A DNA stretch of 64,000 nt from Patescibacteria group bacterium. Lineage in GTDB: Bacteria > Patescibacteriota > Patescibacteriia > SG8-24 > DYFX01. Location: positions 818,497 to 882,496 of the forward strand of contig CP129476.1 of assembly GCA_030583805.1 (NCBI GenBank), in the 5' to 3' direction. Shown piece by piece: positions 7,623-61,901 of this stretch (positions are counted from its first letter, which is position 1; each line of letters starts with the position of its first letter). The notes beneath the pieces are model-generated. The model was not told where the DNA came from, did not search any database, and saw only the letters and a list, made by a program, of their open reading frames with translations. Made by a program: the position numbers and the translations under genes.

Positions 7623-8258
7623 TCAGTCGTGCGGGTTGTAGAGCCACTCGGCCGTTTTGCTTTTCGCGATATCGCCCGGAGTGATGAATTCCATCTGGTA
7701 CAGGAAGTTGGTGCCGGCGTTTTCCTTGAACATGACGCGATCGCGTTTCTCAGGCGCGACGCCCAGGTAGAATGCGCGTTGCGTGAAGCTTGAACAGACG
7801 AAGTTGTCGATGTTGATGATGCGCTGCGCGATCATGTCGCGCACCTTCACGTTCGCGAGTTTGAGCACGATGCGGTTCAGCATGTAGCCGAACAGCCGCG
7901 TGTAGTCGTACGGCGTATCGATTTTATCGAGGAAAAAACCGAGAATGCGTTCGCGCTCTTCATCGGTAATGCCCGGAACGCGCTTCACGCCGATGTCGAA
8001 ATCCTTCTCGTTCAGATAGGAGTGGAGCCGGTGGATTTCGATGCCCTTGTCGAGCGCTTCCACGATCAGGACCTCGGGTTCCTGATCTTTCTGGCGGATG
8101 ACTTCAAAGACCAAGGCGCTGTGATTCCAGTACGAATGGCTCATCTTCCGAATGCCCCTGAGCAGCCAGTTCGCGTGCTTGGTGCGCGTCATGATGATAT
8201 CGGCGACGCGCAGATTGCGGATCGCTTCGCTGCGGTCGGTGTACCGGGCCGCGTCCAT
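7623..8258 (-). CDS. YaeF/YiiX-like permuted papain-fold amidase (NlpC/P60 superfamily), paralog 1.
   Basis: His motif SHSYWNHSALVF upstream of Cys motif NFVCSSFTQRAF, i.e. the permuted His-before-Cys order. Start at MDAARYTD. Confidence 0.6.
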   Translation of the reverse strand: MDAARYTDRSEAIRNLRVADIIMTRTKHANWLLRGIRKMSHSYWNHSALVFEVIRQKDQEPEVLIVEALDKGIEIHRLHSYLNEKDFDIGVKRVPGITDEERERILGFFLDKIDTPYDYTRLFGYMLNRIVLKLANVKVRDMIAQRIINIDNFVCSSFTQRAFYLGVAPEKRDRVMFKENAGTNFLYQMEFITPGDIAKSKTAEWLYNPHD

Positions 8259-8259
8259 A

Positions 8260-8931
8260 TCAATGGCGGTTCCAGATCCACTCGCAGGCGTCGCTCTTCG
8301 CGATGTCGGCCGGGGACACGAGTTCTTGCAGTTCGATCGGAGAATCGCCCAGATCGCGGAACGCAAACATGTGGCGCCGTTCCCAAGGAGCGGCATTCCA
8401 ATACGCTTTCTGGATCAATCCGCTGCAGGTGAAGCGCTGGCGCTTGAGGACGAACTTGCGAATCGTGCGCGAGATGGAAGCAAGCGCCAGGTCGGCGAGC
8501 GGCAGGCGGTAATACGGCGCATCGACGTTCATGAGCGTGAACGCGCGGACGTGGTCGCGCAACTCGTTGCTGACATTCATGCAGCGTTTCACGCCGACGT
8601 CATAGCGATCGGGATCATTGAGATATCGATCCATCTTGTGCACCTCGACGCCGCGCCGCCAGGCATCAAACGCCTGATACTGGATCGCTTCTGCGATGAT
8701 GTTGCTCGAGTAACCCTTTTCCGGATTCTTCGTGAAGATGATGAGCGCGGTGTGATCCCAATAGCTCTCGGTCACCTTGCGCAAAAACTTTCGCACAAGC
8801 GACTTCTTATGCCTGATCATCACGATATCTCCGATCATGAGCTGCGGCAGCGGTCCGTGAATGCGCTCAAGCGCGCTCAGGTGTTGCGTGTCGTCCACCG
8901 TGCCGTGCCCGCGCACTTCATGCTTATGCAT
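8260..8931 (-). CDS. YaeF/YiiX-like permuted papain-fold amidase, paralog 2.
   Basis: TESYWDHTALIIF ... RFTCSGLIQKAYW. Its stop lies 1 nt from the start of paralog 1. Confidence 0.6.
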   Translation of the reverse strand: MHKHEVRGHGTVDDTQHLSALERIHGPLPQLMIGDIVMIRHKKSLVRKFLRKVTESYWDHTALIIFTKNPEKGYSSNIIAEAIQYQAFDAWRRGVEVHKMDRYLNDPDRYDVGVKRCMNVSNELRDHVRAFTLMNVDAPYYRLPLADLALASISRTIRKFVLKRQRFTCSGLIQKAYWNAAPWERRHMFAFRDLGDSPIELQELVSPADIAKSDACEWIWNRH

Positions 8932-9782: not shown

Positions 9783-10214
9783 TCATTTCTTTCCCGGTGC
9801 TTTAAGTACGAGCCACAAGGCTCCCGCCACGATCATCGCGTCAGCCACGTTCACGGCTGAGAGCTGAAAAAAGATCGCGTAATCGACCGTAAATCCGTAG
9901 ACGATGCGGTCAAAGAGGTTGCTGCAAGCGCCGAGGATAAAAAAGAGATACGCCTCGGCTCGCTTGTAGTGTCTCGTCCGAAAGTCTTTGTACGCCAAAC
10001 GGACGACAAACGCCAGGATCACGAAACTGAGCAGCCACACGAACGGACCGGAGAAGGGGAGGCTGAACGCGATGCCGCTATTTCGAAACAGCTCGAATCG
10101 CAGCGCGCCAAGGGCTGTTTCCGCCTGTGCGCCCGAGAGCGCGAGCTGCTTCAAGACGCGATCCAGGGCGAATGCGCCGAGCGCGATCAGCGTCCATCGT
10201 GTCTGCAGTTTCAT
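9783..10214 (-). CDS. lspA: Lipoprotein signal peptidase II.
   Basis: Motifs FRNSGIAFSL, GACSNLFDRIVYGFTVDY and NVADAMIVAGALWLV. Start at MKLQTRW, an internal Met of the 201-aa ORF. Confidence 0.8.
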   Translation of the reverse strand: MKLQTRWTLIALGAFALDRVLKQLALSGAQAETALGALRFELFRNSGIAFSLPFSGPFVWLLSFVILAFVVRLAYKDFRTRHYKRAEAYLFFILGACSNLFDRIVYGFTVDYAIFFQLSAVNVADAMIVAGALWLVLKAPGKK

Positions 10215-10260
10215 GAAGTCCAGTATAGCAAAATCCCCCGACAGACGCCGGGGGACTCGC

Positions 10261-10626
10261 TTACTCCGTAAACAGTTTTTTGCAGTCGATGCAGGAGGTA
10301 GACGTCGGTCGCGCCATGAGACGCTTCTCGTCGATGACCTTTCCGCAGTATTTGCAAGTTCCGTAGGTTCCGTCCTGAATCCGCTCAAGCGCCTTCTTCA
10401 CGTCGCGAAGCGAGGCTTCCAGCGTGCGTTCAACGGTCAGATCCTTCGAGTACTCTGCAACTTCCGAAGCGTTCTCGTCCTCTTTGTCGCCAAGCTGCGG
10501 AAAGTCCGCATTGAAATCATCAGCGTTCTGAGGATTTCGTTGAGCGAAGCCACCCAGCTCTTCTTCGAGCTTAGCCTTTTCCTCTACCAGCTTCTCTTCA
10601 AGGGTTTTCAGGATGTTCTTGTCCAT
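10261..10626 (-). CDS. dksA: DksA/TraR-family C4 zinc-finger transcription factor.
   Basis: Coiled-coil N-terminus plus CKYCGKVIDEKRLMARPTSTSCIDC. Confidence 0.8.
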   Translation of the reverse strand: MDKNILKTLEEKLVEEKAKLEEELGGFAQRNPQNADDFNADFPQLGDKEDENASEVAEYSKDLTVERTLEASLRDVKKALERIQDGTYGTCKYCGKVIDEKRLMARPTSTSCIDCKKLFTE

Positions 10627-10718
10627 ACTTGGCTAAAAAAACGGGCTTCTGCCTTGCTAGCAGTATAGGGGATTGGTCCGGAGCTGGCAAGGGTTGAACC
10701 CTCCCTAAACAAAAGAAA

Positions 10719-10796
10719 AAGCTCGAGAGCGTGTATGCGGATTTGCCTCAGGACGCCTGTAAAGACGTGCTAGGGCAAATCCGCAATACTCTCGAG
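10719..10796. repeat. Long imperfect inverted repeat (stable hairpin) in a non-coding region.
   Basis: gctcgagagcgtgtatgcggatttgcc ... ggcaaatccgcaatactctcgagc; about 21 paired positions around a 26-nt loop. Confidence 0.5.
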
Positions 10797-11104
10797 CTTC
10801 AGAGTGCCTCGCGTTGAGCCTTCTGTTCGCCGCAGCGATCGAAGGACTAGCCAACGGTGGGCGGAAAGAACAACCTCCCCAACCTTCCAACGGTTCAAAT
10901 CCTCGGGTCAGTGCCGAAGCACGACATAATTGAGGCAGAACCAAGATGCTTTTGATTTTGGTTTTGCAAGGAGAAAAGTAAGGGAGAAGGATGCGCACCC
11001 AAGATGTTCTTCGGTAAGCGTCCTTCAAAGGGTCTTTCCGTATTCAGTTGTCAACGTTCTCTATAACCACTATACCCGAAATTAAGGCTTAGGTCAATCG
11101 GGAT

Positions 11105-11250
11105 GCTGTGGATGGAATTATCGTTAGTAATAAGGCGAAATAAGCTTATTCACTTAAGGCTAAGAGAGACTGTGTACAAAGGTGTGGATTGATTGTGGAT
11201 TGGGCTGAATAACGTTATCCACATTTCGCCTAGTAATATCCACAGACTGT
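11105..11250. promoter_or_regulatory. Cluster of five DnaA-box-like 9-mers with an adjacent AT-rich stretch: candidate oriC or DnaA-regulated region.
   Basis: tgtggatgg (11107), tgtggattg x2 (11184, 11194), TTATCCACA (perfect, 11215) and atatccaca (11236). AT-rich 11119-11168. Confidence 0.4.
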
Positions 11251-12435
11251 GAACAACCCCGTTTCAAGATTCTTTACGGTCACATTGACCTTGGTGAACG
11301 CTCCGTATGCGGCAACGGAGGTGCCAGAAAACGTCGCAAAGCCGCCAGCCCCGTCCTTATCGCAGGACGTGTTTGGTGTCAGCGCGTTCAAATTCGCAAG
11401 GAGTCCGGCCTGGATGAGCTGGACGTCATTACTGATCCAGGTTTCGCCGATATCAGCGTGAAAAACCAGGATTTTCTGGGATTTACCAGGAGTAGAAAAG
11501 CGGAAAAGCTGCCCGTAAGGGTTACGAAGAGCCTCTTTTTGAATGGATTCGGGGTCGTGGCGGAACTCAAGCATCACAGAGTCGTCGGGCAGCGTGACGT
11601 TCATGGTCTGTGGTGAGGCTTGAGCCAAAAGATCGCGAACAAACGATTCGACGTCGTTGGCAACATTCTTCTGGCCAACGGTCGGAAGGTAGTACATCAG
11701 GAAAGGAAAGAGCGTTTCGCCCGTTGAAGAAGCGCTTACGGCCAACTCGACACGCCCGGGCCATGTCCACGGGTCGGTTAAGCCTTTAAAACGCTGCATA
11801 GTCTTCTGGAGGAGCGCCGGTGACTCACCCCAAGAAACACCCGTCGGTTTTTCCAAATGCACCGCTTCCTGATCGATTGATCTGATCAGCTTCCGACCGA
11901 AAGCAAAGGGCTCAGGATTCAGCATCATGCCACGGTATCGCCGTCCGACCTCAAAACGCACCAATTTTTGCTCAAAATGAGCCGAGATCGGTTGCAAATG
12001 GCCATCCACGCGCAGTGTCCCGACGGCATCGACCTCGCGCGGTACAAGCCGCCACTTCGGCTCCTGGCTTTGCCCTCGCGCCGTGCTCAAGGCTTCAACC
12101 AAGCCCCATTGCAAGGCTCCTTCCGGGCTTCGGACGGCGAAAAGCGTGGCGGGGTTGCCTGGGACGGCTTGCGAGACGGCGGCGCGCGCATCCGCGGGAA
12201 GGGCGGCGACAAAACGCTGCCAGGCGGGGTCGTCGATAGAGGCCTGCTCGCGATTCAGAAACGAAAGCACGACTTCGGACTGCGGCGGCGCCGTCGGGCT
12301 GGTGTCGAGGACGAGGCGATGCGTGTAGAACAGCAGGCCTACAGCGAAAACAAACGCCCCTCCCAGGGGGAGGAGCGCTTGGAGTTTCGTAAGCTCGCGG
12401 AGCTTAGGCAGTTTTTGGAGCGTCGGAGCCGCCAT
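11230..12435 (-). CDS. Hypothetical membrane-anchored protein (N-terminal TM helix, 401 aa).
   Basis: ORF overlaps the pnp 3' end by 32 nt; N-terminal TM LPLGGAFVFAVGLLFY. Confidence 0.55.
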   Translation of the reverse strand: MAAPTLQKLPKLRELTKLQALLPLGGAFVFAVGLLFYTHRLVLDTSPTAPPQSEVVLSFLNREQASIDDPAWQRFVAALPADARAAVSQAVPGNPATLFAVRSPEGALQWGLVEALSTARGQSQEPKWRLVPREVDAVGTLRVDGHLQPISAHFEQKLVRFEVGRRYRGMMLNPEPFAFGRKLIRSIDQEAVHLEKPTGVSWGESPALLQKTMQRFKGLTDPWTWPGRVELAVSASSTGETLFPFLMYYLPTVGQKNVANDVESFVRDLLAQASPQTMNVTLPDDSVMLEFRHDPESIQKEALRNPYGQLFRFSTPGKSQKILVFHADIGETWISNDVQLIQAGLLANLNALTPNTSCDKDGAGGFATFSGTSVAAYGAFTKVNVTVKNLETGLFTVCGYY

Positions 12436-14575
12436 TCTGCTGAAGTTTCTCCTTAGCGCGCTTCAAGCTTAGGTTGACGCGGCCCAACTCGTCAATCTTG
12501 ATGACGACGACCGGGATGATATCGCCGACCTTCACGACGTCGGTGACTTTTTCAACGCGCTTGGAATCAAGCTCGCTGATGTGGACCATGCCCTCTTGTC
12601 CGGGAAGGACTTCGACGAACGCGCCGAAGTCGAGGATGCGCGTGACCTTGCCGGCTTCGAAGAACTCGCCGACTTTGAGTTCGCGCGTGAGATCTTCGAC
12701 CCACCTCTTCGCGGCCTGGAGCTGTTCGAGATTGACGGACGTGATCGTGACGGTGCCGTCGTTCTCGACATCCATCTGCACGCCGGTCTTCTCGATGATC
12801 GCGTTGATCGTTTTACCGCCGGGACCGATGACGTTGCGGATGAGATCGGGATTGATTTTGAGAACGACGATGCGCGGCGCGTACGGCGAGAGGTCGGGAC
12901 GCGGAGCGGCGATCGCTTGCGCCATGACGTCGAGAATCTGAAGACGCGCAGCCTTCGCTTTCGTCAGCGTCTCTTCGACGATCTGCCAAGTGAGGCCTTT
13001 CGTCTTGGTGTCCATCTGGATCGACGTGATGCCGTCGCGCGTGCCGCCGATCTTGAAGTCCATGCCGCCCATGCCGTCTTCCAAGTCTTGGAGGTCGGTG
13101 ATGATCTTGTAGCGGTTCACGTCGTTCGGATCGGTGGCGATGCCCATGGCGATGCCTGCGACCGGTTTCTTGATCGGCACGCCGGCGTCCATGAGCGCGA
13201 GCGTCGAACCGCAGATCGATCCCTGCGAAGAGGAACCGTTCGAGCCGAGCGTTTCGGACACGACGCGGATCGTGTACGGGAAGTCTTCCTTGGAAGGAAG
13301 CACCGGCACGAGCGCGCGCTCGGCGAGGCCTCCGTGCCCGATTTCACGGCGTCCGCCGCCGCCGAAGCGGCCCGTTTCGCCGACCGAATACGGAGGGAAG
13401 TTGTAGTGGTGGAAGTAGCGGCGCTTCTCGGAGAATTCCATGCTGTCGACCAGCTGGACGTCCGACGGCGCGCCGAGCGTCACGGTCGAGAGAATCTGCG
13501 TTTCACCCCGGGAAAACAGGCCCGAACCGTGGACGCGCGGAAGCAGCGCGACCTCGGCGGAGAGCTCGCGGATCTCGTCGAGCGCGCGGCCGTCGCAGCG
13601 CTTGCCCTCGTCCAAGATGATCTGCGAGACGACTTCTTCGACCCACTTCTGCATGGCGTCGAGCGCCCACTTGCGCTTGTCCTTGCCGACCTGTTCGGCC
13701 TTCAAGTATTCGTCGAGCGTGTGCGCGAGCGCGACCTTGGCGTCGCGGCGCTCGCCCTTCGTCGCTTTCGGCGTGGCAAAAAGATATTCGCGGATCTTGG
13801 GGAAGATGAACTCGCGCGACTTGGCGATCAGCGCTTCCTTTTCTTTCGCGGTTTCTTCGTCGAGGCCGATCAGCTCGTTGACCGAACGCTTCGGCTTGCC
13901 GATTTCGGCGACGATTTTTTCGATGAAGGCCTGGACTTCGGAAAGATGCTTCGCGCCGAAACGCATGCCGGCCATCACGTCTTCTTCTTTTGCTTCGTTG
14001 CTTTCCGCTTCCACCATGGTGGTGTGCGTCGGCGTGCCGACGATGACGACGTCGATGTCGCTCTTCTCGCGCGCTTCGTACGACGGGTTGATCACCCACT
14101 CGCTGCCGACGCGGCCGACGCGGATGCCGCCGACCGGACCGTCCCACGGAATGTCGGACATACCGAGCGCGATCGAAGCGCCGACCATGGCCGGGATGTC
14201 GTAATCGTTTTCCTTATCGAAAGCCAGGGTCGTAAAGACGACTTGGATTTCGTTGCGGATCTTCTGGTTGAAGAGCGGGCGGATCGAGCGGTCGATCATG
14301 CGGCCGACGACGACGGCGTCATCCGTCGGTCGTCCCTCGCGCTTCAGGAAGCGCGAAGACTTGATCTTGCCGGCGGCATAGAGGCGCTCTTCGCACTCCA
14401 CGGAGAGCGGAAGGAAGTCGATGCCGTCGCGAGAGCCCGAGCTCATCGTGGCGGTGACGAGCACCATCGTGTCGCCGTAGCGCACGACGCAGGAACCGTT
14501 GGCCTGCTTGGCGAGTTTGCCAATCTCAACAGAGAGCGTTTTGCCGCCCCACTCAAGCGAATACTGCTTGGTCAT
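12404..14575 (-). CDS. pnp: Polyribonucleotide nucleotidyltransferase (PNPase).
   Basis: Two RNase PH domains, KH and S1; start at MTKQYSLEWGG. Confidence 0.95.
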   Translation of the reverse strand: MTKQYSLEWGGKTLSVEIGKLAKQANGSCVVRYGDTMVLVTATMSSGSRDGIDFLPLSVECEERLYAAGKIKSSRFLKREGRPTDDAVVVGRMIDRSIRPLFNQKIRNEIQVVFTTLAFDKENDYDIPAMVGASIALGMSDIPWDGPVGGIRVGRVGSEWVINPSYEAREKSDIDVVIVGTPTHTTMVEAESNEAKEEDVMAGMRFGAKHLSEVQAFIEKIVAEIGKPKRSVNELIGLDEETAKEKEALIAKSREFIFPKIREYLFATPKATKGERRDAKVALAHTLDEYLKAEQVGKDKRKWALDAMQKWVEEVVSQIILDEGKRCDGRALDEIRELSAEVALLPRVHGSGLFSRGETQILSTVTLGAPSDVQLVDSMEFSEKRRYFHHYNFPPYSVGETGRFGGGGRREIGHGGLAERALVPVLPSKEDFPYTIRVVSETLGSNGSSSQGSICGSTLALMDAGVPIKKPVAGIAMGIATDPNDVNRYKIITDLQDLEDGMGGMDFKIGGTRDGITSIQMDTKTKGLTWQIVEETLTKAKAARLQILDVMAQAIAAPRPDLSPYAPRIVVLKINPDLIRNVIGPGGKTINAIIEKTGVQMDVENDGTVTITSVNLEQLQAAKRWVEDLTRELKVGEFFEAGKVTRILDFGAFVEVLPGQEGMVHISELDSKRVEKVTDVVKVGDIIPVVVIKIDELGRVNLSLKRAKEKLQQNGGSDAPKTA

Positions 14576-14759
14576 AGATATCGTCCAACCCGCCACGAGG
14601 CCAGTACTCAGTCCTGCGTCGCCGATCGGGTCGGTGAAGCGGGACTGCGAACTGTCTCCTCGGGCGTTTGGAACATGCTAATTGTTAGTCCACCCAGACG
14701 GGAGGAGGCAGGCGTCCGAAGGTCGGGCGGCTGCCTCCCCGCATCTGCGGGGAAACGGG

Positions 14760-15368
14760 CTATTCCTCCTCGTCGCTCAGCATTTTGCTGATATTGGGAT
14801 CGACGTCGTCGGCTGTCGGAGCGTTTTTTTGGCTGCGCGTGCCGGTTGCGCGGCCGGTATGGCGGGTCGGGATCAGATAGCGGCCCTGGTCGCGGGAAAG
14901 ATCGATGAAATCATCGGCAACCTCGACCAGTTTGGAGGAAGATGTCTCGCGGAACGCCATGACCTCGGTTTGAACGCCCATGTTTTGAAGGTATTCGACG
15001 AGCGGGATGAAGTCGCCGTCGCCCGAGACAAGGACGACCACGTCGAGTTTGGGGGAGAGGCGGATGGCGTCGACCACCATGCCGACGTCCCAATCCGCTT
15101 TTTTGGCGCCGCCCAGGAACACCTGGACCTCGCGCTCCTTGGTTTCAATGCCGAGCTTGGTGAGAGCGTCGAAGAACGATTGTTCCTCGGGCACGCCGGC
15201 GCGGACGACGTAGGCGATCGCGCGGACGAGGGCGCGGTCGGCGACCGCGGTTTCTACGATATTTCCGAAGTTTACGCGGCAATTGTAGAGGTTCTTCGCC
15301 GAGTAATACATGTTCTGCACGTCGATAAAGACCCCGACACGCTGGCTCCGTTGCTTAATAACGGCCAT
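14760..15368 (-). CDS. NYN/LabA-like domain protein (predicted RNase).
   Basis: VGVFIDVQNMYYSAKN ... LVSGDGDFIPLV ... an acidic C-terminal tail. Confidence 0.75.
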   Translation of the reverse strand: MAVIKQRSQRVGVFIDVQNMYYSAKNLYNCRVNFGNIVETAVADRALVRAIAYVVRAGVPEEQSFFDALTKLGIETKEREVQVFLGGAKKADWDVGMVVDAIRLSPKLDVVVLVSGDGDFIPLVEYLQNMGVQTEVMAFRETSSSKLVEVADDFIDLSRDQGRYLIPTRHTGRATGTRSQKNAPTADDVDPNISKMLSDEEE

Positions 15369-15444: not shown

Positions 15445-15705
15445 TTACACTTTGAGTTTCTCGGTCAGCTTCGCGTACTCCTTCGGCATTTCGCGCTGGA
15501 GATAGCGGAGCAACTTGCGGCGCTCGTTGACCTTGCGCAGCAGACCGCGGCGGGACGAGAAGTCCTTCTTGTGCATTTTCAGGTGGTCCGTGAGGTCTTT
15601 GATCTCAGCCGTGAGGATGGCGATCTGGACCTGGGCGGAACCGGTGTCCTGGTCGTGCGTCTTGTACTTCTCGATGATTTTTTCTTTTGCCTTCTTGTCG
15701 AGCAT
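15445..15705 (-). CDS. rpsO: 30S ribosomal protein S15.
   Basis: 86 aa, HKKDFSSRRGLLRKVNERRKLLRYL. Forms the classic rpsO-pnp arrangement. Confidence 0.95.
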   Translation of the reverse strand: MLDKKAKEKIIEKYKTHDQDTGSAQVQIAILTAEIKDLTDHLKMHKKDFSSRRGLLRKVNERRKLLRYLQREMPKEYAKLTEKLKV

Positions 15706-15883
15706 ACATCGTATATAAGCCGGTGCGCCGAGTAGAGGCCCGCTCGAGGGCCGAAACCGAGCTGCGCGGCAGGAGTTAAGTACGCGGGAACACTAACAAA
15801 ATGGAGCAAAGGCGTCAAGTATCACGCGATTTAGCAGCTCCGCTACATTAACATGTAGCTTAAGACTAATTTGACAATTATGT

Positions 15884-15912
15884 GGATAATTCTTGACAAA
15901 ATCTTATGTTTT
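15884..15912 (+). promoter_or_regulatory. Near-consensus sigma70 promoter on the plus strand.
   Basis: TTGACA, a 17-nt spacer and TATCAT; a second TTGACA lies 13 nt upstream. Confidence 0.45.
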
Positions 15913-15920
15913 TGGTATCA

Positions 15921-15990
15921 TTTACACATGGGCATTGCCCAGGGGCTCGCGTAGCGAGCCGGCAGGGCTCGGGGAAACCCGAGTCTTTTG
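15921..15990 (+). ncRNA. Candidate ~65-nt terminated small transcript (two hairpins plus a T-run), convergent on the DUF3800 3' end.
   Basis: ggctcgcgtagcgagcc hairpin, then ctcggggaaacccgag followed by tctttt. Confidence 0.25.
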
Positions 15991-15995
15991 CTATC

Positions 15996-16805
15996 TCAGC
16001 AGTCTTGGCCAAAACAACTGTACTTAATTCCGTGTGTCGGAAGCTTCTCCGCGGGGAGCACTGCATCGATGACTTTTTTGGCGTCAAACAAAGATAGCCA
16101 TGGGCGGTAGCCCGGTTCGTACCCGTGCTTCGCCATAGGATACAGAAAAAGGTCGGCGATCTGGATACCGATGTTTCGCTTCTTTTTTCCTCTTGGGTCA
16201 CCGAGAAGTATTTTCTTAAAATCTGCAGCCGTTAGCGCGCCATATGCAGCAGAATTCGATGGGTTAAAAGGCATTCCGACAGCCTTTAAATCCTTGGAAT
16301 ATTGGATGATCGCCGCGTCTTCGCGCTTTCCACACATTTCGAATCGGATAGCCAGCGTTCCATTGATAGACGAAACATGCTTTACCACTCGCTCAACCAA
16401 AATAGAGAAAGCGGTTTTGCACATCCACCAACGCTTTTCTCCATACAAAGGCTCATATCGAGTATTGTACCCAGGCCGGTGTACAACAGCCGCGAAACCG
16501 AGCGCAGGAAGAGTCTGTATAAAAGTGTTTAGTTCTTTAAGGAATTTGTCAGCGAGAGCATCGTCTTGAAGCCAGGCAAAATCATTGCGTTTACCACGAA
16601 TATCACTGGAGTGAAGAGGGTAATCAATGTTCCATTTTGTACAGAAGCCAAAAAAAGCTTCATGGACTGATGCGATATCGGCTTCGGCAATTAGGACACC
16701 ACCTAATGCAAAATGGTCCATTCCATCAGTTCTCGCCAAAGCAGGCCGTCGATCAGGAAAGCGACTGCCCGAGTCATCGATATACAGCAAGTGCGTAGCA
16801 CCCAT
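15996..16805 (-). CDS. DUF3800-family protein (predicted RNase H-like fold). Low-GC gene, probably acquired.
   Basis: N-terminal LLYIDDSGS motif. About 48% GC against about 63% in the flanks. Confidence 0.65.
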   Translation of the reverse strand: MGATHLLYIDDSGSRFPDRRPALARTDGMDHFALGGVLIAEADIASVHEAFFGFCTKWNIDYPLHSSDIRGKRNDFAWLQDDALADKFLKELNTFIQTLPALGFAAVVHRPGYNTRYEPLYGEKRWWMCKTAFSILVERVVKHVSSINGTLAIRFEMCGKREDAAIIQYSKDLKAVGMPFNPSNSAAYGALTAADFKKILLGDPRGKKKRNIGIQIADLFLYPMAKHGYEPGYRPWLSLFDAKKVIDAVLPAEKLPTHGIKYSCFGQDC

Positions 16806-38091: not shown

Positions 38092-40395
38092 TTACACGGC
38101 AACGGTTTTCTGTCCCTTGATGCGCTCCGCGTCTTCGAGCTGGAGCGAGAGGATTGAAGATGTGGAATCTTCGCCCATGGTGACGCCGTAGAGCACCTGC
38201 GACTTCTGCATCGTGTAGCGGTTGTGCGTGATCACGAGGAACTGCGTCTTGTGCGAGAGCTCGTCGATGATCTTGGCGAAGCGCGCGGCGTTCGATTCGT
38301 CGAGCGCGGCGTCGACTTCGTCGAGCACCACGAAGGGCGAGGGGTTCGTCGTCATGATGGCGCAGATGAGCGCGATCGAGGTGAGGGCGCGCTCGCCGCC
38401 CGAGAGCATGTGGATCGACTTCACGCGTTTGCCGGGAGGATTCGCGTAGATTTCGAGGCCGAGCCAGGTTTCTTTCGGCGCGGCGGAAACGTCTTTCTTC
38501 ACTTCTTCCTCGATGCCGGCCGCTTCGTTGGCGGCGGCCTTCTCGGCTTCGGCGACTTCATCCTCCTCTTCTTCGCGCTCGATTTTTTCCAGAGAAGCGG
38601 CACCGCCGTCGAAGAGCTGCTTGAAGAATTCTCCGAAGTGCTGGTTGATGCGGCGGAACGAGGCGTCGGACTGTTTTTTGATCAGGACGTCGAGCTCCTC
38701 GATCATCACGACGAGCGAGGCCTTCGTCTTGTGCAGGTCCTCGACCTGGCCGGAAAGGAAGTCGAAGCGTTCTTTGATCTCCTTGTATTCGTCGACCACG
38801 GCCTGGTCGATCGAGCCGATCGCGGCGACCTGCGTGCGCAGTTGGTGGAGGCGGGGAGAGAGGGTGAGCGCGTCGACTTTCTGCGCCGGTTCGGCGGAAA
38901 GCGCGGCCATGGCCTCGTCGCCCATCATTTCCTTGGCTTCGCGCTCGACCGTTTCTTTGCGGGTTTCAATGCGCGCGCGCTCGACGCGGTGGTCGGAGAG
39001 GTGGCGGTCGAGTTCGAAGAGCTCGCCCTGGAACGACTGCATTTTGCGCTGAATCTCGAAGAAGGCGCCGCGCTTCTTGGCTTCCTCTTGGCCCCACTGC
39101 TGCATCTGGGTTTGGAGATCGGTCAGCGCTTTGCCCATCGAGGCGATGGCGGCAAGCGTTTCCTCCAACTCTTTCTGCATGGCGGCCGGGACGACGGGCT
39201 CTTTCTTTTCCTGCTTGCCCTTGTGGCCGGGCTCCTTCAGTTCGGAGAGCAGTTCGTTGATCTGCTTGCCGAGCTTTTCGAGCTCGTGCGCCGCTTGTTG
39301 CGCCTGTTCGAGCGTTTCGGCGTTCAGGATCGAGGAAACCAATTCGTCATGGCGTTCGGAAATCGCCGAGACTTCTTCGACGATGCGGGGGAGCGGCATC
39401 GGCAGCGCGGGCGCGTTGGCCGCTTGCGCCTTCATCTGTTCCATCCGGATCTGGTTCTTGAGCTGGATTTCCTTTTCGCGCAAACCGTTGCGCTTCTCCA
39501 TCTCCTTTTCGTATTCCTTTTGGAGCGCGATCAAGCCGTCGGACTTCGTTTCTTCCGTTTCCATGCCGGCGAGTTCGGCGCGGATCGCTTCGATCTCTTT
39601 CTCTTTGGCCTTGCGGCTTTCTTCGACCGTTTTCGTCTTCGCGTCGATCGCGGCAAGCTCCTCCTTGATTTGCTTCCACTGCGTGCCGAAGTAGAGGACC
39701 GAAAGCTCCTGGAGTTCTTTTTCCAGATTGGCGCGCTCTTCCAAGCGGCGCACTTGGCGCGAGAGGGAGCGCATGCGCGGTTCGATCTCGGCGAGGATGA
39801 GCTCGGCCTGTTTCAAGTTTTCTTCCGAAGCGTCGAGCTTGCGGACGGAGGCTTCGCGCTTCAGCTGGTATTGCTTCACGCCGGCGGCTTCGTCGAAAAA
39901 TTCCTTGCGCTCCTTGGGCGAAGCGACGAGGATCGCATCGATCATGCCTTGGCCGATGACGGAGTAGGTGCGCTGGCCGAAGTTGGCGCGCGCGAGGAGC
40001 AGGATGACTTCCTGCAGCTTCACCTTGTTTTTGTTGATCAGGTACTCCGATTCGCCGTCGCGGTAGATGCGGCGCGTGATGACGACTTCCGGATACTCGA
40101 TGTCGTTGCCGCCCGCTTCGTTGTTCAGCGCCAGCGAGACTTCGGCGAAACCCGAGCGCGAGCGCTTTTCGGAACCGCTGAAGATGACGTCTTCGGATTT
40201 CTTGCCGCGCAGGAGCTTCAAGGACTGCTCGCCCAAGACCCAGCGGACGGCGTCGGCGATGTTGGACTTGCCGGAACCGTTCGGGCCGACGATCGCGGTC
40301 GTGCCGCGGTTGCCTTCTTTCGGAGGGAGGAATTCCAAGACCGTGCGGTTGGCGAACGTCTTGAAACCCTGCATTTCGATGCGCTGGAGATACAT
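38092..40395 (-). CDS. smc: SMC-family chromosome segregation ATPase, short (767 aa) form without an obvious hinge.
   Basis: Canonical N-terminal head (GPNGSGKSN, RTYSVIGQG) and C-terminal head (LSGGERALTSIAL ... VVLDEVDAALD), with only about 430 aa of coiled-coil between them. Confidence 0.8.
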   Translation of the reverse strand: MYLQRIEMQGFKTFANRTVLEFLPPKEGNRGTTAIVGPNGSGKSNIADAVRWVLGEQSLKLLRGKKSEDVIFSGSEKRSRSGFAEVSLALNNEAGGNDIEYPEVVITRRIYRDGESEYLINKNKVKLQEVILLLARANFGQRTYSVIGQGMIDAILVASPKERKEFFDEAAGVKQYQLKREASVRKLDASEENLKQAELILAEIEPRMRSLSRQVRRLEERANLEKELQELSVLYFGTQWKQIKEELAAIDAKTKTVEESRKAKEKEIEAIRAELAGMETEETKSDGLIALQKEYEKEMEKRNGLREKEIQLKNQIRMEQMKAQAANAPALPMPLPRIVEEVSAISERHDELVSSILNAETLEQAQQAAHELEKLGKQINELLSELKEPGHKGKQEKKEPVVPAAMQKELEETLAAIASMGKALTDLQTQMQQWGQEEAKKRGAFFEIQRKMQSFQGELFELDRHLSDHRVERARIETRKETVEREAKEMMGDEAMAALSAEPAQKVDALTLSPRLHQLRTQVAAIGSIDQAVVDEYKEIKERFDFLSGQVEDLHKTKASLVVMIEELDVLIKKQSDASFRRINQHFGEFFKQLFDGGAASLEKIEREEEEDEVAEAEKAAANEAAGIEEEVKKDVSAAPKETWLGLEIYANPPGKRVKSIHMLSGGERALTSIALICAIMTTNPSPFVVLDEVDAALDESNAARFAKIIDELSHKTQFLVITHNRYTMQKSQVLYGVTMGEDSTSSILSLQLEDAERIKGQKTVAV

Positions 40396-56436: not shown

Positions 56437-56859
56437 TTACGGCGTGGCCGTCGTGGCGCGGATGACCGCGTTGATGATGAAGCCGGTGAGCGCGTAGGCC
56501 AGGAAGATGATGATGAGACCGATGATGCACTGCTTGATGATCTCTTTGGCCTTGTCGATCGGGTCGCTCTCGCCGCGCGCCGTCATCCAGAGGAAACCGG
56601 CGTAGACCATGAGGACCAGGAAGATGATACCGAGGAGACCGAGGAGCGTGCGGATGATGCGGCCGATGATGAGCGGGAGCTGCTGGCCAGCCGTGGCGGC
56701 GTCGCCGCTGTTCGGGTTCGGATTGGCGGCGTTCAGGCAGCCAAGGGCGTTTCCGGTGCTCGGGTCGCAAGGAGCTTGCGCGCCGACGGGCATCGCGACC
56801 AGGGCCATCTGACTCATGGTGAGGAGCGAGATGAAACCCAGAAGAAGTTTCTTGAGCAT
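56437..56859 (-). CDS. TrbC/VirB2-like (T4SS-type) pilin paralog 1.
   Basis: Signal peptide, then IIGRIIRTLLGLLGIIFLVLMVYAGFLWMTARGESD ... IIGLIIIFLAYAL: the two-TM pilin core. Confidence 0.6.
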   Translation of the reverse strand: MLKKLLLGFISLLTMSQMALVAMPVGAQAPCDPSTGNALGCLNAANPNPNSGDAATAGQQLPLIIGRIIRTLLGLLGIIFLVLMVYAGFLWMTARGESDPIDKAKEIIKQCIIGLIIIFLAYALTGFIINAVIRATTATP

Positions 56860-56884
56860 ACGATGTGAGGTGATTAGCAGGGGA

Positions 56885-57223
56885 TTAGGCGCCGGCGGCC
56901 GGAGCGGCTGTTCTGGCGACTGCGTTCAGGACGAACGCGGCGATCGCGTAGGCGGCGGAGATGATGATGAGTCCGATCACGGCGTTCTTCAGCAGTTCCT
57001 TGGCGTGCTTCACCTTGGCATCATCGCCTTGCGCCGTCAGCCAGAGGTAGCCGGCGTAGATGATCAGCACCATGAAGACGATGCCGAGGAGCCCGATGAA
57101 GGTGCGTACGAGGTTGCCGATGAGTTCCGGAAGCGTGGTCGGCGAGTTGAGGTTGGCCGCTTCGGCGACGTCGAGCAGTTTGTCCGCACCGAAGTTCTGA
57201 GCCAGTTTTTGCATGTCAGCCAT
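56885..57223 (-). CDS. TrbC/VirB2-like pilin paralog 2.
   Basis: LIGNLVRTFIGLLGIVFMVLIIYAGYLWLTAQGDD ... IGLIIISAAYA. Confidence 0.6.
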   Translation of the reverse strand: MADMQKLAQNFGADKLLDVAEAANLNSPTTLPELIGNLVRTFIGLLGIVFMVLIIYAGYLWLTAQGDDAKVKHAKELLKNAVIGLIIISAAYAIAAFVLNAVARTAAPAAGA

Positions 57224-57234
57224 AGATGGGGCGC

Positions 57235-57804
57235 TTACGAGGCCTCAGCGCAGAGGCCGAAGCTGCAGGGCTGCGCTTCGCTTCCGATCGACGGGTCGCC
57301 CTCGCCGAGGCATTCGCACGTTCCGGTGTAGCAGTAGTTGCCGGGAACGCTGCAGTCCGAGGCGGTCGTGCACGTACGCGTCGTACATTCGTTCGTATCG
57401 ACCGTGATCGGCGTTGGGCCGTTCGGGTCGGACGCCGAGCCTGAGGAGGCTGTACCGGCTACGGCATTGATGACGAAGGCGGTGAGCGCGTACGACGCGG
57501 CGATGATGATGAGTCCCGTGACCGCTCCGGAAATGATCTTCTTTGCCGTATCGATTTTCTTGTCGTCGCCCCGGGCCGTCATGTAGAGAAAGCCGGAGTA
57601 GAGCATCAGGATCAGGAACAGGACGCCGAGATAACTGAGCACCGTCTGGATGAGCCGGCCGATCGTGGCCAGCAAGTCTTTGTTGCCTTTGAGCGAAGAC
57701 GGGGCGGCGGCATCAAGGCCGAATTGGGCGTAGACGTCGGGCAGTGCGACGAGCATGACGGCCACGAGGCACAGCGCCGGAAGAAGAATGCGTTTCAAGC
57801 GCAT
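57235..57804 (-). CDS. TrbC/VirB2-like pilin paralog 3 with a Cys-rich C-terminal extension.
   Basis: Pilin core IGRLIQTVLSYLGVLFLILMLYSGFLYMTARGDD, plus a C-terminal CTTRTCTTASDCSVPGNYCYTGTCECLGEG ... C. An alternative start lies at 57855. Confidence 0.55.
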   Translation of the reverse strand: MRLKRILLPALCLVAVMLVALPDVYAQFGLDAAAPSSLKGNKDLLATIGRLIQTVLSYLGVLFLILMLYSGFLYMTARGDDKKIDTAKKIISGAVTGLIIIAASYALTAFVINAVAGTASSGSASDPNGPTPITVDTNECTTRTCTTASDCSVPGNYCYTGTCECLGEGDPSIGSEAQPCSFGLCAEAS

Positions 57805-57915
57805 ACGTAGAGTGAGTTCAAGGGATCCGGAGATACCGGCGAACGTCGCCGGCATCTCCCGAGACCTTGTGACGACGCCCCGATTCGCATCGGGGCGTCG
57901 CGGTAAGGCGTTGTA

Positions 57916-58314
57916 CTAGGCGGTCGTAGCGGTCACGAGACTGTTGATCACGAACGATGCGATCGCGTAAGCGGTCAAGATGATGATCAAGCCGATAATA
58001 CCGGCCGTGATGATCTTCTTGGCGTCGCCGACGGCTTCATCGGAACCACCGGACGTCATCCATTTGAAACCTCCGTACAGGATGATCATAACGGCAATGA
58101 TACCGAGTAGGCTCATGGCCGTGCGGACGATACGCGCGATCGTGATGCGCAGGTCCTGCTGTTGCTGGCCGAGCTCGGTCGCGATTTGACCGGGCAGGAG
58201 CTCGTTGGACGTCACTGCACCCTGGGCCAAAGCGACCATCGGGAGCGCCATCGTCGCGAGCATTGCCGTACTGATCAGACCCTTGACAAGCGTTTTCTTC
58301 GTCATGCAAATCAC
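57916..58314 (-). CDS. TrbC/VirB2-like pilin paralog 4.
   Basis: IARIVRTAMSLLGIIAVMIILYGGFKWMTSGGSDE. Confidence 0.6.
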   Translation of the reverse strand: MICMTKKTLVKGLISTAMLATMALPMVALAQGAVTSNELLPGQIATELGQQQQDLRITIARIVRTAMSLLGIIAVMIILYGGFKWMTSGGSDEAVGDAKKIITAGIIGLIIILTAYAIASFVINSLVTATTA

Positions 58315-58327
58315 CTCCTTTCAGGCG

Positions 58328-58651
58328 TTAGCCCGTGATAGCCGAGAATACGAAGCGGACAAGTCCGTAACTGGTGAAGATCACCACGAGACCGATCGCC
58401 GCCCATTTCATAGCTTCTTTGCCTGCGCTCACTTTACCAGCCTCGCCACCCGAGGTCAACCAAATAAATCCACCATAGATGAAGACCAGCAGCGCGAGCG
58501 CGCCGACAATGCCGATCGCTGCTCTCAAAATATTGGCAATGAGTTCGGGAACCGAATTGGCGTTGAGCGGATTCTGCAATGTGATGGTTTCTTGGGCTGA
58601 AACGGCGAAAGGAACCAAGAATGCGGCGAGGATGGAAAGAATCTTTTTCAT
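58328..58651 (-). CDS. TrbC/VirB2-like pilin paralog 5 (minimal 107-aa form).
   Basis: Signal peptide, then LIANILRAAIGIVGALALLVFIYGGFIWLTSGGEAGK ... IGLVVIFTSYGL. Confidence 0.65.
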   Translation of the reverse strand: MKKILSILAAFLVPFAVSAQETITLQNPLNANSVPELIANILRAAIGIVGALALLVFIYGGFIWLTSGGEAGKVSAGKEAMKWAAIGLVVIFTSYGLVRFVFSAITG

Positions 58652-58654
58652 ACG

Positions 58655-59728
58655 TCAGGAAGAGGAAAGCGCGTTGAGCAAGATTGAGAGCACTGCGTAT
58701 GAAAGGAAGATCGCGGCGAGGGCGGACACGGTCGTCGTGATCATGCCGCGAGCCTCGGCGACTTTCTTTTCATCGCCCGCGGCGGTCATGTACTTGATGC
58801 CGCCCCAGATGAAGAAGACGAGCGCGATTGCGCCGACGACGCCGAGCAATGTGCGGATGACGCGCCCGATAACCGCAGGCAGACTGATGCTTCCAAGAGG
58901 CAAGGGGAGTGAAATCGCGCTTCCGCGTTCGGTGACCGATCCGGTTCCCGCCGGCGCGCTTTGTTCCATTTTTGCCAGCGCCGCCAGGATGGCGTCACCT
59001 TTACGGATCGCTTCCAAACACGCCCGGTAGCGAGCCTTTGTCTCTTCAGCGTCGGCGGCGCTCAAGTACGAAATGTAGAGGTCACCGCGAACGGTCAAGG
59101 TGCCCGCATCACAGAATTCCGAAAAGGCCATGAACGCATCGTGCTTAGCGCTATGGAATGCGATTTCGTCAGTAAAAAGCTGCGTTCCGGGTTCAATCGT
59201 CAAGCCTTCAATTCCACGCGTTGTACCGAAGGTGAGCACCCGATCGTTCACGTACATGTCGTTCGGAATGATCGTATAGTCGAAAGCGTTTTTGATCGCT
59301 TCCCACGCCGCCTGATCTTCCGGTACGAGCTCGGTGCGTTCGGAGAGGGTGATCGTTTCGCCATCGATGACCACGGTCGGTCGATAGGTATGCTCGCGCG
59401 CGCTTTGATTCAAGATGACGGCGAAGGATTCTTCCGCCAGTTTCCTGCCAGCCGAAAGATGGATGCAGTAGGTTTTCGCATCCGGCCTAGTCGACGTGCA
59501 GTTCGGAAATTGGTCTGCCAACGTGATCGTGCGTTCCGTGGCTCGAAGCGCCAAGTCGTAGTGACTTTCACAAAACGATCGATACTGCGCCGGCACTGGC
59601 GTAGCCGCTTCGGTGCAAGTTATCAATGGCAACCATAACGCTTTGGCAGCGAATGGCGCGGCAGCGACAAAGGCGATCGTGGCGCTGACCATCACTACTC
59701 CGAGCGTTCTTGCGGCAGAATTCTGCAT
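58655..59728 (-). CDS. Fusion protein: ~250-aa N-terminal extracellular domain plus a C-terminal TrbC/VirB2-like pilin core.
   Basis: C-terminal VIGRVIRTLLGVVGAIALVFFIWGGIKYMTAAGDE ... LAAIFLSYAVL. Confidence 0.55.
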   Translation of the reverse strand: MQNSAARTLGVVMVSATIAFVAAAPFAAKALWLPLITCTEAATPVPAQYRSFCESHYDLALRATERTITLADQFPNCTSTRPDAKTYCIHLSAGRKLAEESFAVILNQSAREHTYRPTVVIDGETITLSERTELVPEDQAAWEAIKNAFDYTIIPNDMYVNDRVLTFGTTRGIEGLTIEPGTQLFTDEIAFHSAKHDAFMAFSEFCDAGTLTVRGDLYISYLSAADAEETKARYRACLEAIRKGDAILAALAKMEQSAPAGTGSVTERGSAISLPLPLGSISLPAVIGRVIRTLLGVVGAIALVFFIWGGIKYMTAAGDEKKVAEARGMITTTVSALAAIFLSYAVLSILLNALSSS

Positions 59729-59734
59729 AGACGA

Positions 59735-60433
59735 TTAATTCAAGCAGCAAGCGAAGTCGGCAGGCTTGCTCGGGCAGAGGCCGCGTACGCAGCTCGAAGC
59801 GCCGCTCACGTTCTGGCAGCTGTAGACCTCGCCCCGTTGTCGCTTCTCGAGTTCGCTGTTGAGCGCCTTGCAATCGTCTTTCTTGATGCACACGACCGAC
59901 TCGGGAATGGTCTTTCCGTTGGGATCGATGCCGGCAGGGATTGAGACCCACAAACCGTCAGCCGCGGTGCAGAGCCCACCGTCGCAAACGCCGAGGCCAT
60001 TGCAATCAGCACTCGATGTGCATCCTCTCGGGAGACTCTTCTGCGCGGCAGCATTGCAGGATTCGCCGATCGTCGGGATCGCGGAAGTGCCACCTGTCAA
60101 CGCCTGGGTCGTGAAACGTACGAGGATGCCCGAGAGGAAGATGATGGCGATGCCGATGATCGCGCTCTTCAGGATGCCGATCGCCTTGCCGACCTTCGTC
60201 TTGTCTCCCGCGGCCAGGATGAAGGTAAAACCGCCGTACACGAAATAGAGCAGGGCCACGGCGCCGGAGATGCCGATCAGGTATTCGGCGGCATTGACGA
60301 AGGTGATCAGGATGTCGCTCACGCCGCAGTTGCCGCTTTCGGTGCATGGCGGCAAGAGCCTAATTTGGGCGGAAGCGGCAAAGGGAAGGATGGCGAGCCA
60401 GGCGGGAAGCGCGAAACGAAAAAGGCGTTTCAT
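59735..60433 (-). CDS. TrbC/VirB2-like pilin paralog 7 with a Cys-rich C-terminal domain.
   Basis: Starts at MKRLFRF (an internal Met of the 280-aa ORF); core ISGAVALLYFVYGGFTFILAAGDKTK; 12 Cys in the C-terminal 130 aa. Confidence 0.55.
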   Translation of the reverse strand: MKRLFRFALPAWLAILPFAASAQIRLLPPCTESGNCGVSDILITFVNAAEYLIGISGAVALLYFVYGGFTFILAAGDKTKVGKAIGILKSAIIGIAIIFLSGILVRFTTQALTGGTSAIPTIGESCNAAAQKSLPRGCTSSADCNGLGVCDGGLCTAADGLWVSIPAGIDPNGKTIPESVVCIKKDDCKALNSELEKRQRGEVYSCQNVSGASSCVRGLCPSKPADFACCLN

Positions 60434-60509
60434 ATCGTGAATAAGTGTAGCATAAAAACAACGATCCCGGCTTGAGCCGGGATGCGATGTGTGGACAGGC
60501 TTGTCGGGC

Positions 60510-61901
60510 TTAGCGGATCGTCTGGGCGATGGTCTGGATCGCCAGGTTGATGGCGCGGTTCGGGTCCACTCCCGCAAGTGTCGCGTCGATCATTTCGTCG
60601 AAGGCGCCCTCGGTAGCCGCGATATTTACGCCTTGGTACCAGCTTTTGGCCGTCAGGACTTGGGAGGCGAAGACGCCGAGATCCGGTTCGCTGAGCTGGG
60701 TGTTTACCAGGCTTCGGAGCGCCGTCGGCTTGCCTGTTTTGGCCAAATACAGCTTGGCTTGGTCGGCTTTTGCGGCGAATTGGACGAAATCCCAGGCGGC
60801 ATCGGGGTTTTTCGTCTTTTTAGAGACGGTTTCGACCCAATAATTGGCGTAATTGACCCTTGCGGCCGGGTCGATCTGCGGCACGTTCGTCAGGCTGAAG
60901 TTCAACTTGGGCGCCTGCGAGCGGATGCGCGGAAGGTGGTAGGAATAGCCGAAGAAATAAGCCGTTTTGCCCGAAACGAAGGCGTCGTAGGAGTTCGGCT
61001 GGGTGTCATCCCAGGTGAACACTTCCTTAGAGGGGTTGGCGAAATCCGTGTAGAAGACGAGTGCTTCCAGGCCGGGCGGCACCTCTCGGTCGAGGTTTTC
61101 CGGGGTGCGGTTGAAGGTCGGGATACCGTTGGCATCCGTCATTCTCGCGCCATTTTGCATCATGAGGAGCGAAAGAAGGTCGAAAGAACGCTCGACATTC
61201 TTCGAGGTACCGATGCCGACGGCCGGTTTTACGAGCTTTCCCTGGGCGTCATAGGCGGTCAGGCGCTTCACGTGATCCTGGAATTCCGCCCATGTCGTGG
61301 CGGCCGTGGGGATCCCGGCGGCGTTCAGCACGTCGCGGTTGTAGTAGAGCACCATCGTATCGAGCGCCATCGGCAAGCCCCAGAGCTGGTCGACGATGCC
61401 TTTGCCGGGCTCCTCGGCCTGGCCCTTGATGACGACGTCCCGGCTGACCTGGTCGACGAACTGGTCGCGTACTTGGGCCGGAGTGATGACAGGCAGCGTT
61501 TTTTCAACCCATACCGGGTTCTTTTGGACGCCCTGGATCTCGCGGAACGACATTTTCACCGAAGCCGGGGCGGGCAGGAGCTTGGTTTGATACGAGCGGA
61601 TCCAGTCGTTGTGCAAGGAGATGATGTCCGGTCCGCGGTCTTCGGCCAGGGCGTTCAAAAGCTCGCGCTCGTACTCTTCGAGCCGGAGCTTTCGGTAGTT
61701 GACGGTGACGTTCGGGTGGAGCGCGCGATAGGCGGCGACGATTTCGTCGAAGGAGTCGCTGTCATCGAGCACGCGCCAGTAGGTGAGGGTCAGGGGCTTC
61801 GACGACGCGGGCGCCGTTTGGAGATTCGAAGACAGACAGCCGGCACCGCTCACGACCAAAGCGGCCAGGAGGACGATTGAAGCGAGGCGGATGCGCAGCA
61901 T
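60510..61901 (-). CDS. ABC transporter substrate-binding lipoprotein (SBP family 1, sugar/oligosaccharide type).
   Basis: Starts at MLRIRLASIVLLAALVVSGAGC (lipobox); SBP_bac_1-like fold. Confidence 0.75.
   Translation of the reverse strand: MLRIRLASIVLLAALVVSGAGCLSSNLQTAPASSKPLTLTYWRVLDDSDSFDEIVAAYRALHPNVTVNYRKLRLEEYERELLNALAEDRGPDIISLHNDWIRSYQTKLLPAPASVKMSFREIQGVQKNPVWVEKTLPVITPAQVRDQFVDQVSRDVVIKGQAEEPGKGIVDQLWGLPMALDTMVLYYNRDVLNAAGIPTAATTWAEFQDHVKRLTAYDAQGKLVKPAVGIGTSKNVERSFDLLSLLMMQNGARMTDANGIPTFNRTPENLDREVPPGLEALVFYTDFANPSKEVFTWDDTQPNSYDAFVSGKTAYFFGYSYHLPRIRSQAPKLNFSLTNVPQIDPAARVNYANYWVETVSKKTKNPDAAWDFVQFAAKADQAKLYLAKTGKPTALRSLVNTQLSEPDLGVFASQVLTAKSWYQGVNIAATEGAFDEMIDATLAGVDPNRAINLAIQTIAQTIR

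Follow-up and report, generated by a model that had tools for sequence, protein, structure and literature searches.

What is a dense cluster of DnaA boxes doing on a bacterial chromosome at a distance from dnaA? The question is raised by positions 11107-11256 of a 64,000-nucleotide stretch (contig CP129476.1, positions 818,497 to 882,496 of the forward strand; hereafter the window, numbered from its first letter) of a Patescibacteria (phylum Minisyncoccota) metagenome-assembled chromosome of 1,167,441 bp, a locus that the initial annotation had put forward as a candidate chromosomal replication origin (oriC) or as a DnaA-controlled site. Our literature search found no paper on the source genome, and to our knowledge nothing is known experimentally about replication control in Patescibacteria (the candidate phyla radiation, CPR), in which SeqA and Hda are lacking. 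We propose, with a rough probability of 0.55, that the locus is a conserved DnaA-box cluster (DBC) of the Bacillus subtilis type and not a replication origin, and that it would couple the promoter of an adjoining RNA gene to DnaA, titrate DnaA, or do both.

Within these 150 bp lie eight sites that differ by at most two mismatches from the consensus TTATCCACA, and five sites in the same stretch are at most one mismatch away from TTATNCACA. No other 150-bp stretch of the window holds more than three sites at the two-mismatch level, the maximum over 100 dinucleotide shuffles of the whole window was four per 150 bp, and in 3000 local shuffles (11090-11270) the mean was 0.83 sites and the maximum five. 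The cluster first described is thus present at a density exceeding that of the rest of the window and of shuffled sequence, and it includes, as then listed, the perfect box at 11215-11223 (plus strand) and the boxes at 11236-11244 (plus strand) and 11107-11115, the latter reading TGTGGATGG. The tandem reverse boxes are likewise two copies of TGTGGATTG, but they occupy 11183-11191 and 11194-11202 with 'AT' between them, so that the earlier start at 11184 and single-A spacer needed correction. Allowing two mismatches adds TTGTACACA (11171-11179, minus strand), TTATTCACT (11146-11154, plus strand) and TTGTTCACA (11248-11256, minus strand). Read along the minus strand, box a points forward, b and c point backward and d, e, f and g point forward again, followed by an AT-rich block and by the forward-pointing box h (Table 1). 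Boxes d to g form a head-to-tail array with a spacing of 10-12 bp, and boxes c and d together make the palindrome TGTGGATAA-NN-TTATCCAC. Boxes a and b fall inside the last nine codons of a 401-aa open reading frame (ORF; 11230-12435, minus strand), and the cluster is therefore not confined to non-coding DNA, as had been supposed.

We compared the locus with nine distinct genomes, collected through homologues of the 401-aa protein and through two DNA pattern scans. The 401-aa proteins of these relatives range from 90% to about 38% identity to that of the window, and all nine keep the gene order and the ~600-bp gap. One contig with this Patescibacteria locus, CAZKMF010000137.1 (L029 / L009), is deposited as 'uncultured Gammaproteobacteria bacterium' and is probably mis-binned. 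In the alignment, the nine genomes agree without exception in the core, position and orientation of boxes a, b, c, d, f, g and h, and the spacers between box g and the AT-rich block, as well as around box h, diverge freely. Box c is the only perfect TTATCCACA in each orthologous locus of 8-21 kb. The two boxes inside the ORF are informative in a different way: the ACA codon of box a is A-ending in every sequence and the TGT, GGA and TAT codons of box b are A/T-ending in all of them, in a gene with a GC content at third codon positions (GC3) of 65% and a genome with 65-80% GC3, which argues for selection at the DNA level. The alignment shows purifying selection on the boxes. Pattern scans of GTDB genomes and of JGI metagenomes returned four true matches each, all with the identical gene order, and so none of these relatives has the cluster beside dnaA.

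To score the predicted binding of DnaA, we applied the criterion of Ishikawa et al. 2007, which was derived from B. subtilis and calls for at least four successive boxes and a density/affinity score A > 0.3. The window cluster has A = 0.40 and the nine orthologous loci have values of 0.6-1.12; A exceeds 0.3 nowhere else in any locus scored. In B. subtilis, the threshold A > 0.3 singles out precisely the eight regions that bind DnaA stably (PMC2533591); six of these lie outside oriC, and several of the six carry DnaA-regulated promoters (PMC2533591; PMC3245932).

The nearest promoter to the boxes belongs to a gene that had gone unannotated. The 590-bp gap described as non-coding is indeed without a protein gene (10627-11229) but holds a conserved RNA gene, read from the minus strand. 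Between about 11062 and ~10710, genomes whose flanking proteins share only 57-64% identity are 97-100% identical in sequence, with substitutions that show no codon periodicity. The RNAalifold consensus contains 106 pairs, with 96% of cells paired; 23 pairs are changed on both sides, compared with 9.1 +/- 2.3 in shuffles (0/500) and with 1-2 in slid-partner controls, and the compensatory changes are contributed by the more distant relatives. Invariant G-U pairs, together with UUCG/GNRA loops, indicate that the transcribed strand is the minus strand of the window. The 'large hairpin' noted before is present, but it is not free-standing: its 78 nt (10796-10719) are the last helix of the RNA, and the TTTTTCTTTTGTTT run that follows marks it as the RNA's terminator. 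Upstream of the RNA, the GATTGAC and GGTATA.T motifs of a strong sigma-70-like promoter, P1, are invariant in nine distinct orthologues. On this comparative evidence we regard a structured RNA gene of ~350 nt, driven by P1, as real.

The RNA matched no Rfam covariance model at gathering thresholds; two divergent members gave only chance-level Rfam matches at E <= 5-10, and ARAGORN found no tmRNA at the locus. RNase P was considered and set aside, because GGAAAGACC is a variable GNRA hairpin and ACAGAAGGCU sits in a local hairpin instead of a long-range P4 helix. The same holds for tmRNA, SRP and 6S RNA, with no Rfam or ARAGORN match, no tag ORF and no T-arm, and for a 107-aa ORF (10705-11028), which lacks codon periodicity and whose frame crosses the terminator hairpin. 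Exact-pattern scans found the RNA in four GTDB species representatives and four metagenome contigs; as far as these scans tell, it appears confined to a narrow Patescibacteria clade and always lies between the 401-aa gene and dksA.

Box h lies at about -53 to -45 relative to the predicted P1 transcription start. The dksA-like gene, in contrast to the divergent, DnaA-regulated target suggested at first, is co-directional with its neighbours, lies ~480 bp beyond the boxes with the RNA terminator in between and has a promoter of its own, P2. Since P1 adjoins the boxes and dksA has P2, the nearest target of the boxes is the RNA promoter and not dksA. The idea of a DnaA-controlled locus away from dnaA is therefore strengthened by the selection on the boxes, by A = 0.40 and by the 9 bp that separate box h from P1, and only the choice of dksA as the target falls away.

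We envisage that DnaA, the presumed binding protein, would first occupy the high-affinity c/d palindrome and then extend cooperatively over the array with its 10-12-bp phasing. From box h, at about -50, DnaA could set the output of the RNA promoter, in whichever direction, and the level of the RNA would then follow the level or the nucleotide state of DnaA. The array might also sequester DnaA at a distance from the true origin, which would presumably lie elsewhere, and so damp initiation; one or both effects may apply. The B. subtilis clusters offer a close parallel, as they bind DnaA stably, regulate the sda, ywlC and yydA promoters and jointly restrain initiation (PMC2533591; PMC3245932). 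Like them, the present cluster has four to eight close boxes in or beside intergenic DNA, with one or few perfect boxes among many one-mismatch ones, is conserved among relatives and has A values in a similar range (0.36-1.64 there, 0.40-1.12 here); among the B. subtilis clusters, too, there are some at a gene's 3' end (gcp) and some that take in a downstream promoter (yydA, sda). It differs in that the downstream gene is a structured non-coding RNA and not a protein gene, that two boxes lie in coding sequence, that the host is a Patescibacterium with a 1.17-Mb genome and that DnaA binding is predicted here. A further comparison is the DnaA-repressed mioC promoter of Escherichia coli, which has several boxes, one of them perfect, within or close to the promoter (PMC4585315). 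The present locus resembles it in having several boxes with a single perfect one close to a promoter; unlike at mioC, the boxes do not cover the promoter but lie upstream of -45, and the gene product is RNA.

Several points weigh against the proposal of an extra-origin cluster. The binding of DnaA is deduced from sequence only, and it is likewise we who infer that the locus is not the origin. Eight phased boxes exceed the needs of a simple promoter operator, and a 1.17-Mb genome may hold few DnaA-box clusters besides oriC. The head-to-tail array d-g, facing an AT-rich block with TTATT motifs, is origin-like, and the layout of transcription would be that of the E. coli mioC-oriC-gidA region. 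Finally, plain cumulative GC skew reaches its minimum in the window at ~5-11 kb, a minimum that is lost after correction for gene strand and regional codon usage.

These points lead to the strongest of the alternatives, which we nevertheless consider unlikely, namely that the locus is the chromosomal oriC of this Patescibacteria clade, displaced from dnaA. The E. coli oriC also lies away from dnaA, and at mioC-oriC-gidA transcription runs in on the side of the boxes and out on the AT-rich side, the layout seen here. In such an origin DnaA would fill boxes d-g and open the AT-rich block, with transcription of the pnp/401-aa operon and of the RNA supplying negative supercoiling in the manner of mioC and gidA. 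In keeping with this, the cluster is the densest and the sole strong one in 64 kb and is kept in every relative, and its phased head-to-tail boxes stand beside a block of 30-35% GC, as at bacterial origins (E. coli gidA-oriC-mioC; the basal unwinding system of B. subtilis). The genomic context argues otherwise. No dnaA, dnaN, gyrB, recF, rpmH/rnpA, gidA, parB or parS was found in the window or in the 10 kb past its right end, and thus no oriC indicator gene within -11/+63 kb of the cluster; for dnaA and dnaN the negative draws on a scan for DnaA motifs in the window and the related loci, on Pfam scans of the main ORFs and on precomputed Pfam labels of Logan contigs. The earlier statement that no dnaA or dnaN gene is nearby accordingly holds over this range. 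In Paceibacteria and Microgenomatia, dnaA and dnaN are reported to cluster with rpmH, rnpA, ksgA and virB4 (PMC12102498), the classical neighbourhood of an origin. The locus tag of the 401-aa protein, QY323_04365, shows moreover that the deposited record begins elsewhere.

The architecture of the site points in the same direction. For a DnaA-trio we required three or more NAN triplets, all within 16 bp, 5' of a box that reads TGTGGATAA (PMC8287927, PMC7561715). On the AT-rich side faced by array d-g, the longest run is two triplets and none is conserved; the sole run of three lacks conservation and overlaps both box b and the stop codon, and 21% of random boxes have such a run. No 13-mer-like repeats are common to all relatives. 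Only ~130 bp, untranscribed and free of coding sequence and promoter, lie between the stop codon and the -35 hexamer of P1. Gene orientation does not switch at the cluster, as both flanks are on the minus strand; to its right, 39/57 genes are on the minus strand, head-on to a fork that would leave the cluster, among them rpsO, pnp, tRNA-His/Arg and rpsP, all pointing towards it. We count the missing indicator genes, the missing trio run and these head-on genes as support for a cluster outside the origin. An origin at this site would have to be trio-less, fitted into ~130 bp and with two boxes in an ORF, with the clade-specific RNA or its transcription aiding opening or control, which seems improbable to us.

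The AT-rich block itself does not stand out. Its minus strand has a conserved core, AATAAGC-N7-GCCTTATT (about 11130-11152), and the block includes the TTATT motifs CTTATTT and CCTTATT. The low GC content reported by the initial annotation is real, with 30% over the 50 bp from 11116, but this is only the seventh-lowest value in the window, six other stretches are equally or more AT-rich, and other promoter/terminator regions are similar, so that the block is ordinary for intergenic DNA here. A strong hairpin forms in lineages L008 and L050 only (-15 and -12 kcal/mol; z = -4.8 and -4.2), and the window's own block folds no better than its shuffles. We therefore dropped a conserved terminator hairpin as an explanation, since good folding occurs in just two lineages. 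The block may be a DNA-unwinding element or a site for a protein, or it may weakly terminate the pnp/401-aa operon.

The skew of the window can be read either way, whether taken as the plain profile, as GC3 skew, at 4-fold sites or as a strand-corrected cumulative curve. Plain cumulative GC skew, after its minimum, rises to 64 kb, with just 11 kb of sequence left of the site. At 4-fold degenerate sites on the right side, the C bias of minus-strand genes far exceeds that of plus-strand genes (p = 7e-5), a point in favour of an origin. On the left side, however, the two strand classes are alike and the strand-corrected skew is ~0 and not reversed. The strand-corrected cumulative curve has a dip confined to 6-12.4 kb and lowest at 11-12.4 kb; its descending arm spans only 6 kb, and over the first 5.5 kb the curve is rising again. 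Between 3.7 and 12.4 kb, genes on both strands have near-zero 4-fold-site skew and a lower GC content of 52-57%, and the rest of the window is strongly C-biased; we therefore attribute the dip to a regional difference in codon usage and not to a replication switch. As the left arm is just 11 kb long, skew within 64 kb cannot settle the question of the origin, and no skew switch is demonstrable in it.

Less likely still is a role in the nucleotide-state control of DnaA, in which boxes c/d and their neighbours would promote ATP hydrolysis or ADP release in the manner of datA, DARS1 and DARS2. We know of such elements only from Enterobacteria-type systems. The locus is like them in being a chromosomal cluster of at least five boxes outside the dnaA context, in its opposed high-affinity boxes c/d, 2 bp apart, and, as for datA, in its stable-RNA neighbour. 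The DARS core has three boxes and datA has five, and datA and DARS2 need IHF (PMC4585315); datA adjoins the glyVXY tRNA operon, and read-through transcription is reported to modulate it (PMC10950094). Here, on the contrary, neither an IHF nor a Fis consensus occurs in or near the cluster, the sole WATCARNNNNTTR match in the window being at 8667, and box number and layout differ and cannot be aligned to either element. Sequence would in any case not distinguish such a function from plain titration.

The least probable of the readings, that a different regulator of the RNA promoter binds the TCCACA/TGTGGA repeats and that their likeness to DnaA boxes is coincidental, could draw on the single perfect 9-mer in the cluster of the window strain, on the several sites that keep just the TCCACA core and on the palindromic c/d pair, which suits a dimeric protein, but the sites of the relatives converge on the full 9-mer (TTATCCACA, TTATTCACA, TTATGCACA, TTATCCACT, TTTTCCACA) rather than on a shorter core, single boxes without a palindromic partner are present in either orientation, as fits monomeric binding by DnaA domain IV, and no regulator gene is linked to the locus.

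Extra-origin DnaA-box clusters as such are already known; what would be new here is the unstudied phylum and the structured-RNA neighbour. If the proposal of an extra-origin cluster is right, Patescibacteria would have in this locus their first candidate site of DnaA titration or of a DnaA regulon, and its tie to a new structured RNA would connect the initiator with an RNA in a specific and testable way. If it were oriC after all, it would reveal the relocation of an origin, and an unusual architecture, trio-less and flanked by transcription, in a major lineage of bacteria. Programs that look for origins automatically by their box clusters could mis-call the locus, and the '600-bp non-coding gap' deserves annotation as an RNA gene.

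Table 1. Features of the DnaA-box locus and its neighbours (window coordinates; alignment readings refer to the nine orthologues and are given on the minus strand unless stated).
Feature	Position	Strand	Sequence or basis	Conservation and remarks
Box a	11248-11256	-	TTGTTCACA	TT[G/A]TTCACA (11256-11248), TTCACA invariant in 9/9; TTATTCACA in two relatives; within last codons of 401-aa ORF
Box b	11236-11244	+	ATATCCACA (TGTGGATAT on minus strand)	TGTGGATA invariant; within last 4 codons of ORF (C-G-Y-Y)
Box c	11215-11223	+	TTATCCACA, perfect consensus	G.GGATAA invariant; minus-strand reading TGTGGATAA (11223-11215)
Box d	11204-11212	-	TTATTCAGC, degenerate in window strain	TTAT[C/T]CAC (11212-11204); relatives TTATCCAC[T/G] or TTATTCACA
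Box e	11194-11202	-	CAATCCACA	Weakest conservation of all members; only C.CA kept
Box f	11183-11191	-	CAATCCACA	xxATCCACA (11191-11183); TCCACA invariant in every orthologue
Box g	11171-11179	-	TTGTACACA	TTxTxCACA (11179-11171); relatives TTATGCACA or TTTTCCACA; end of head-to-tail array d-e-f-g
AT-rich block	11119-11168		GC 30-35%	Between boxes g and h
Box h	11107-11115	-	CCATCCACA	CATCCACA (11115-11107), T.CACA invariant; ends 9 bp upstream of P1 -35 hexamer
Promoter P1	11069-11097	-	TTGACC-17-TATAGT	Sigma-70-like
Structured RNA gene, ~350 nt	about 11062 to about 10705	-	Conservation and covariation	Unannotated
Promoter P2	10662-10690	-	TTGCCA-17-TATACT	dksA-like/lspA operon; conserved in alignment
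rpsO	15445-15705	-	Gene calls/Pfam	
NYN-domain protein	14760-15368	-	Gene calls/Pfam	
pnp	12404-14596	-	Gene calls/Pfam	
401-aa protein	11230-12435	-		Unknown function; 3' end overlaps boxes a and b
DksA/TraR-type zinc-finger protein	10261-10626	-		Co-directional with RNA gene
lspA	9783-10388	-	Gene calls/Pfam	

On the minus strand, from high to low coordinates, the genes around the cluster are rpsO, the NYN gene, pnp, the 401-aa gene, the RNA gap, the dksA-like gene and lspA. The 401-aa gene always lies downstream of pnp, with a 32-nt overlap; its product has no Pfam match and just 17 homologues among 5.8 billion clustered proteins. The leader of dksA (10627-10661, minus strand) carries an invariant GGCAGAAGCCCG and then, directly ahead of the ATG, TTTTTTT; it shows no obvious Shine-Dalgarno sequence and may be a small attenuator-like element. 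Upstream of rpsO (15706-15800, minus strand; L002 6560-6688), a TTGACG promoter and a ~90-nt leader are highly conserved in the relatives; the leader matched no Rfam family and would fit an S15 autoregulatory leader.

A second perfect box, TGTGGATAA on the plus strand at 15881-15889, lies between two TTGACA hexamers, the second of which forms a plus-strand promoter, TTGACA-17-TATCAT (region 15860-15995). Downstream follows a hairpin, GGCTCGGG-GAAA-CCCGAGTC-TTTT, which suggests a transcript of ~70 nt. The feature is absent from the relatives and adjoins a strain-specific DUF3800 gene (15996-16805). We did not retain this box as part of a regulon, since it is not conserved and is tied to the strain-specific DUF3800 insertion.

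Elsewhere in the window, two tandem overlapping Peptidase_C92 (YaeF/YiiX-like) paralogues at 7623-8931 (minus strand) are kept in all relatives. Seven paralogous type IV secretion system (T4SS) pilin genes (PF18895) form an array at 56437-60577 (minus strand), and no virB4 was found in the window or in the 10 kb past its right end. An SMC_N-family protein encoded at 38092-40395 (minus strand) has only 767 aa, which is short for a bacterial SMC.

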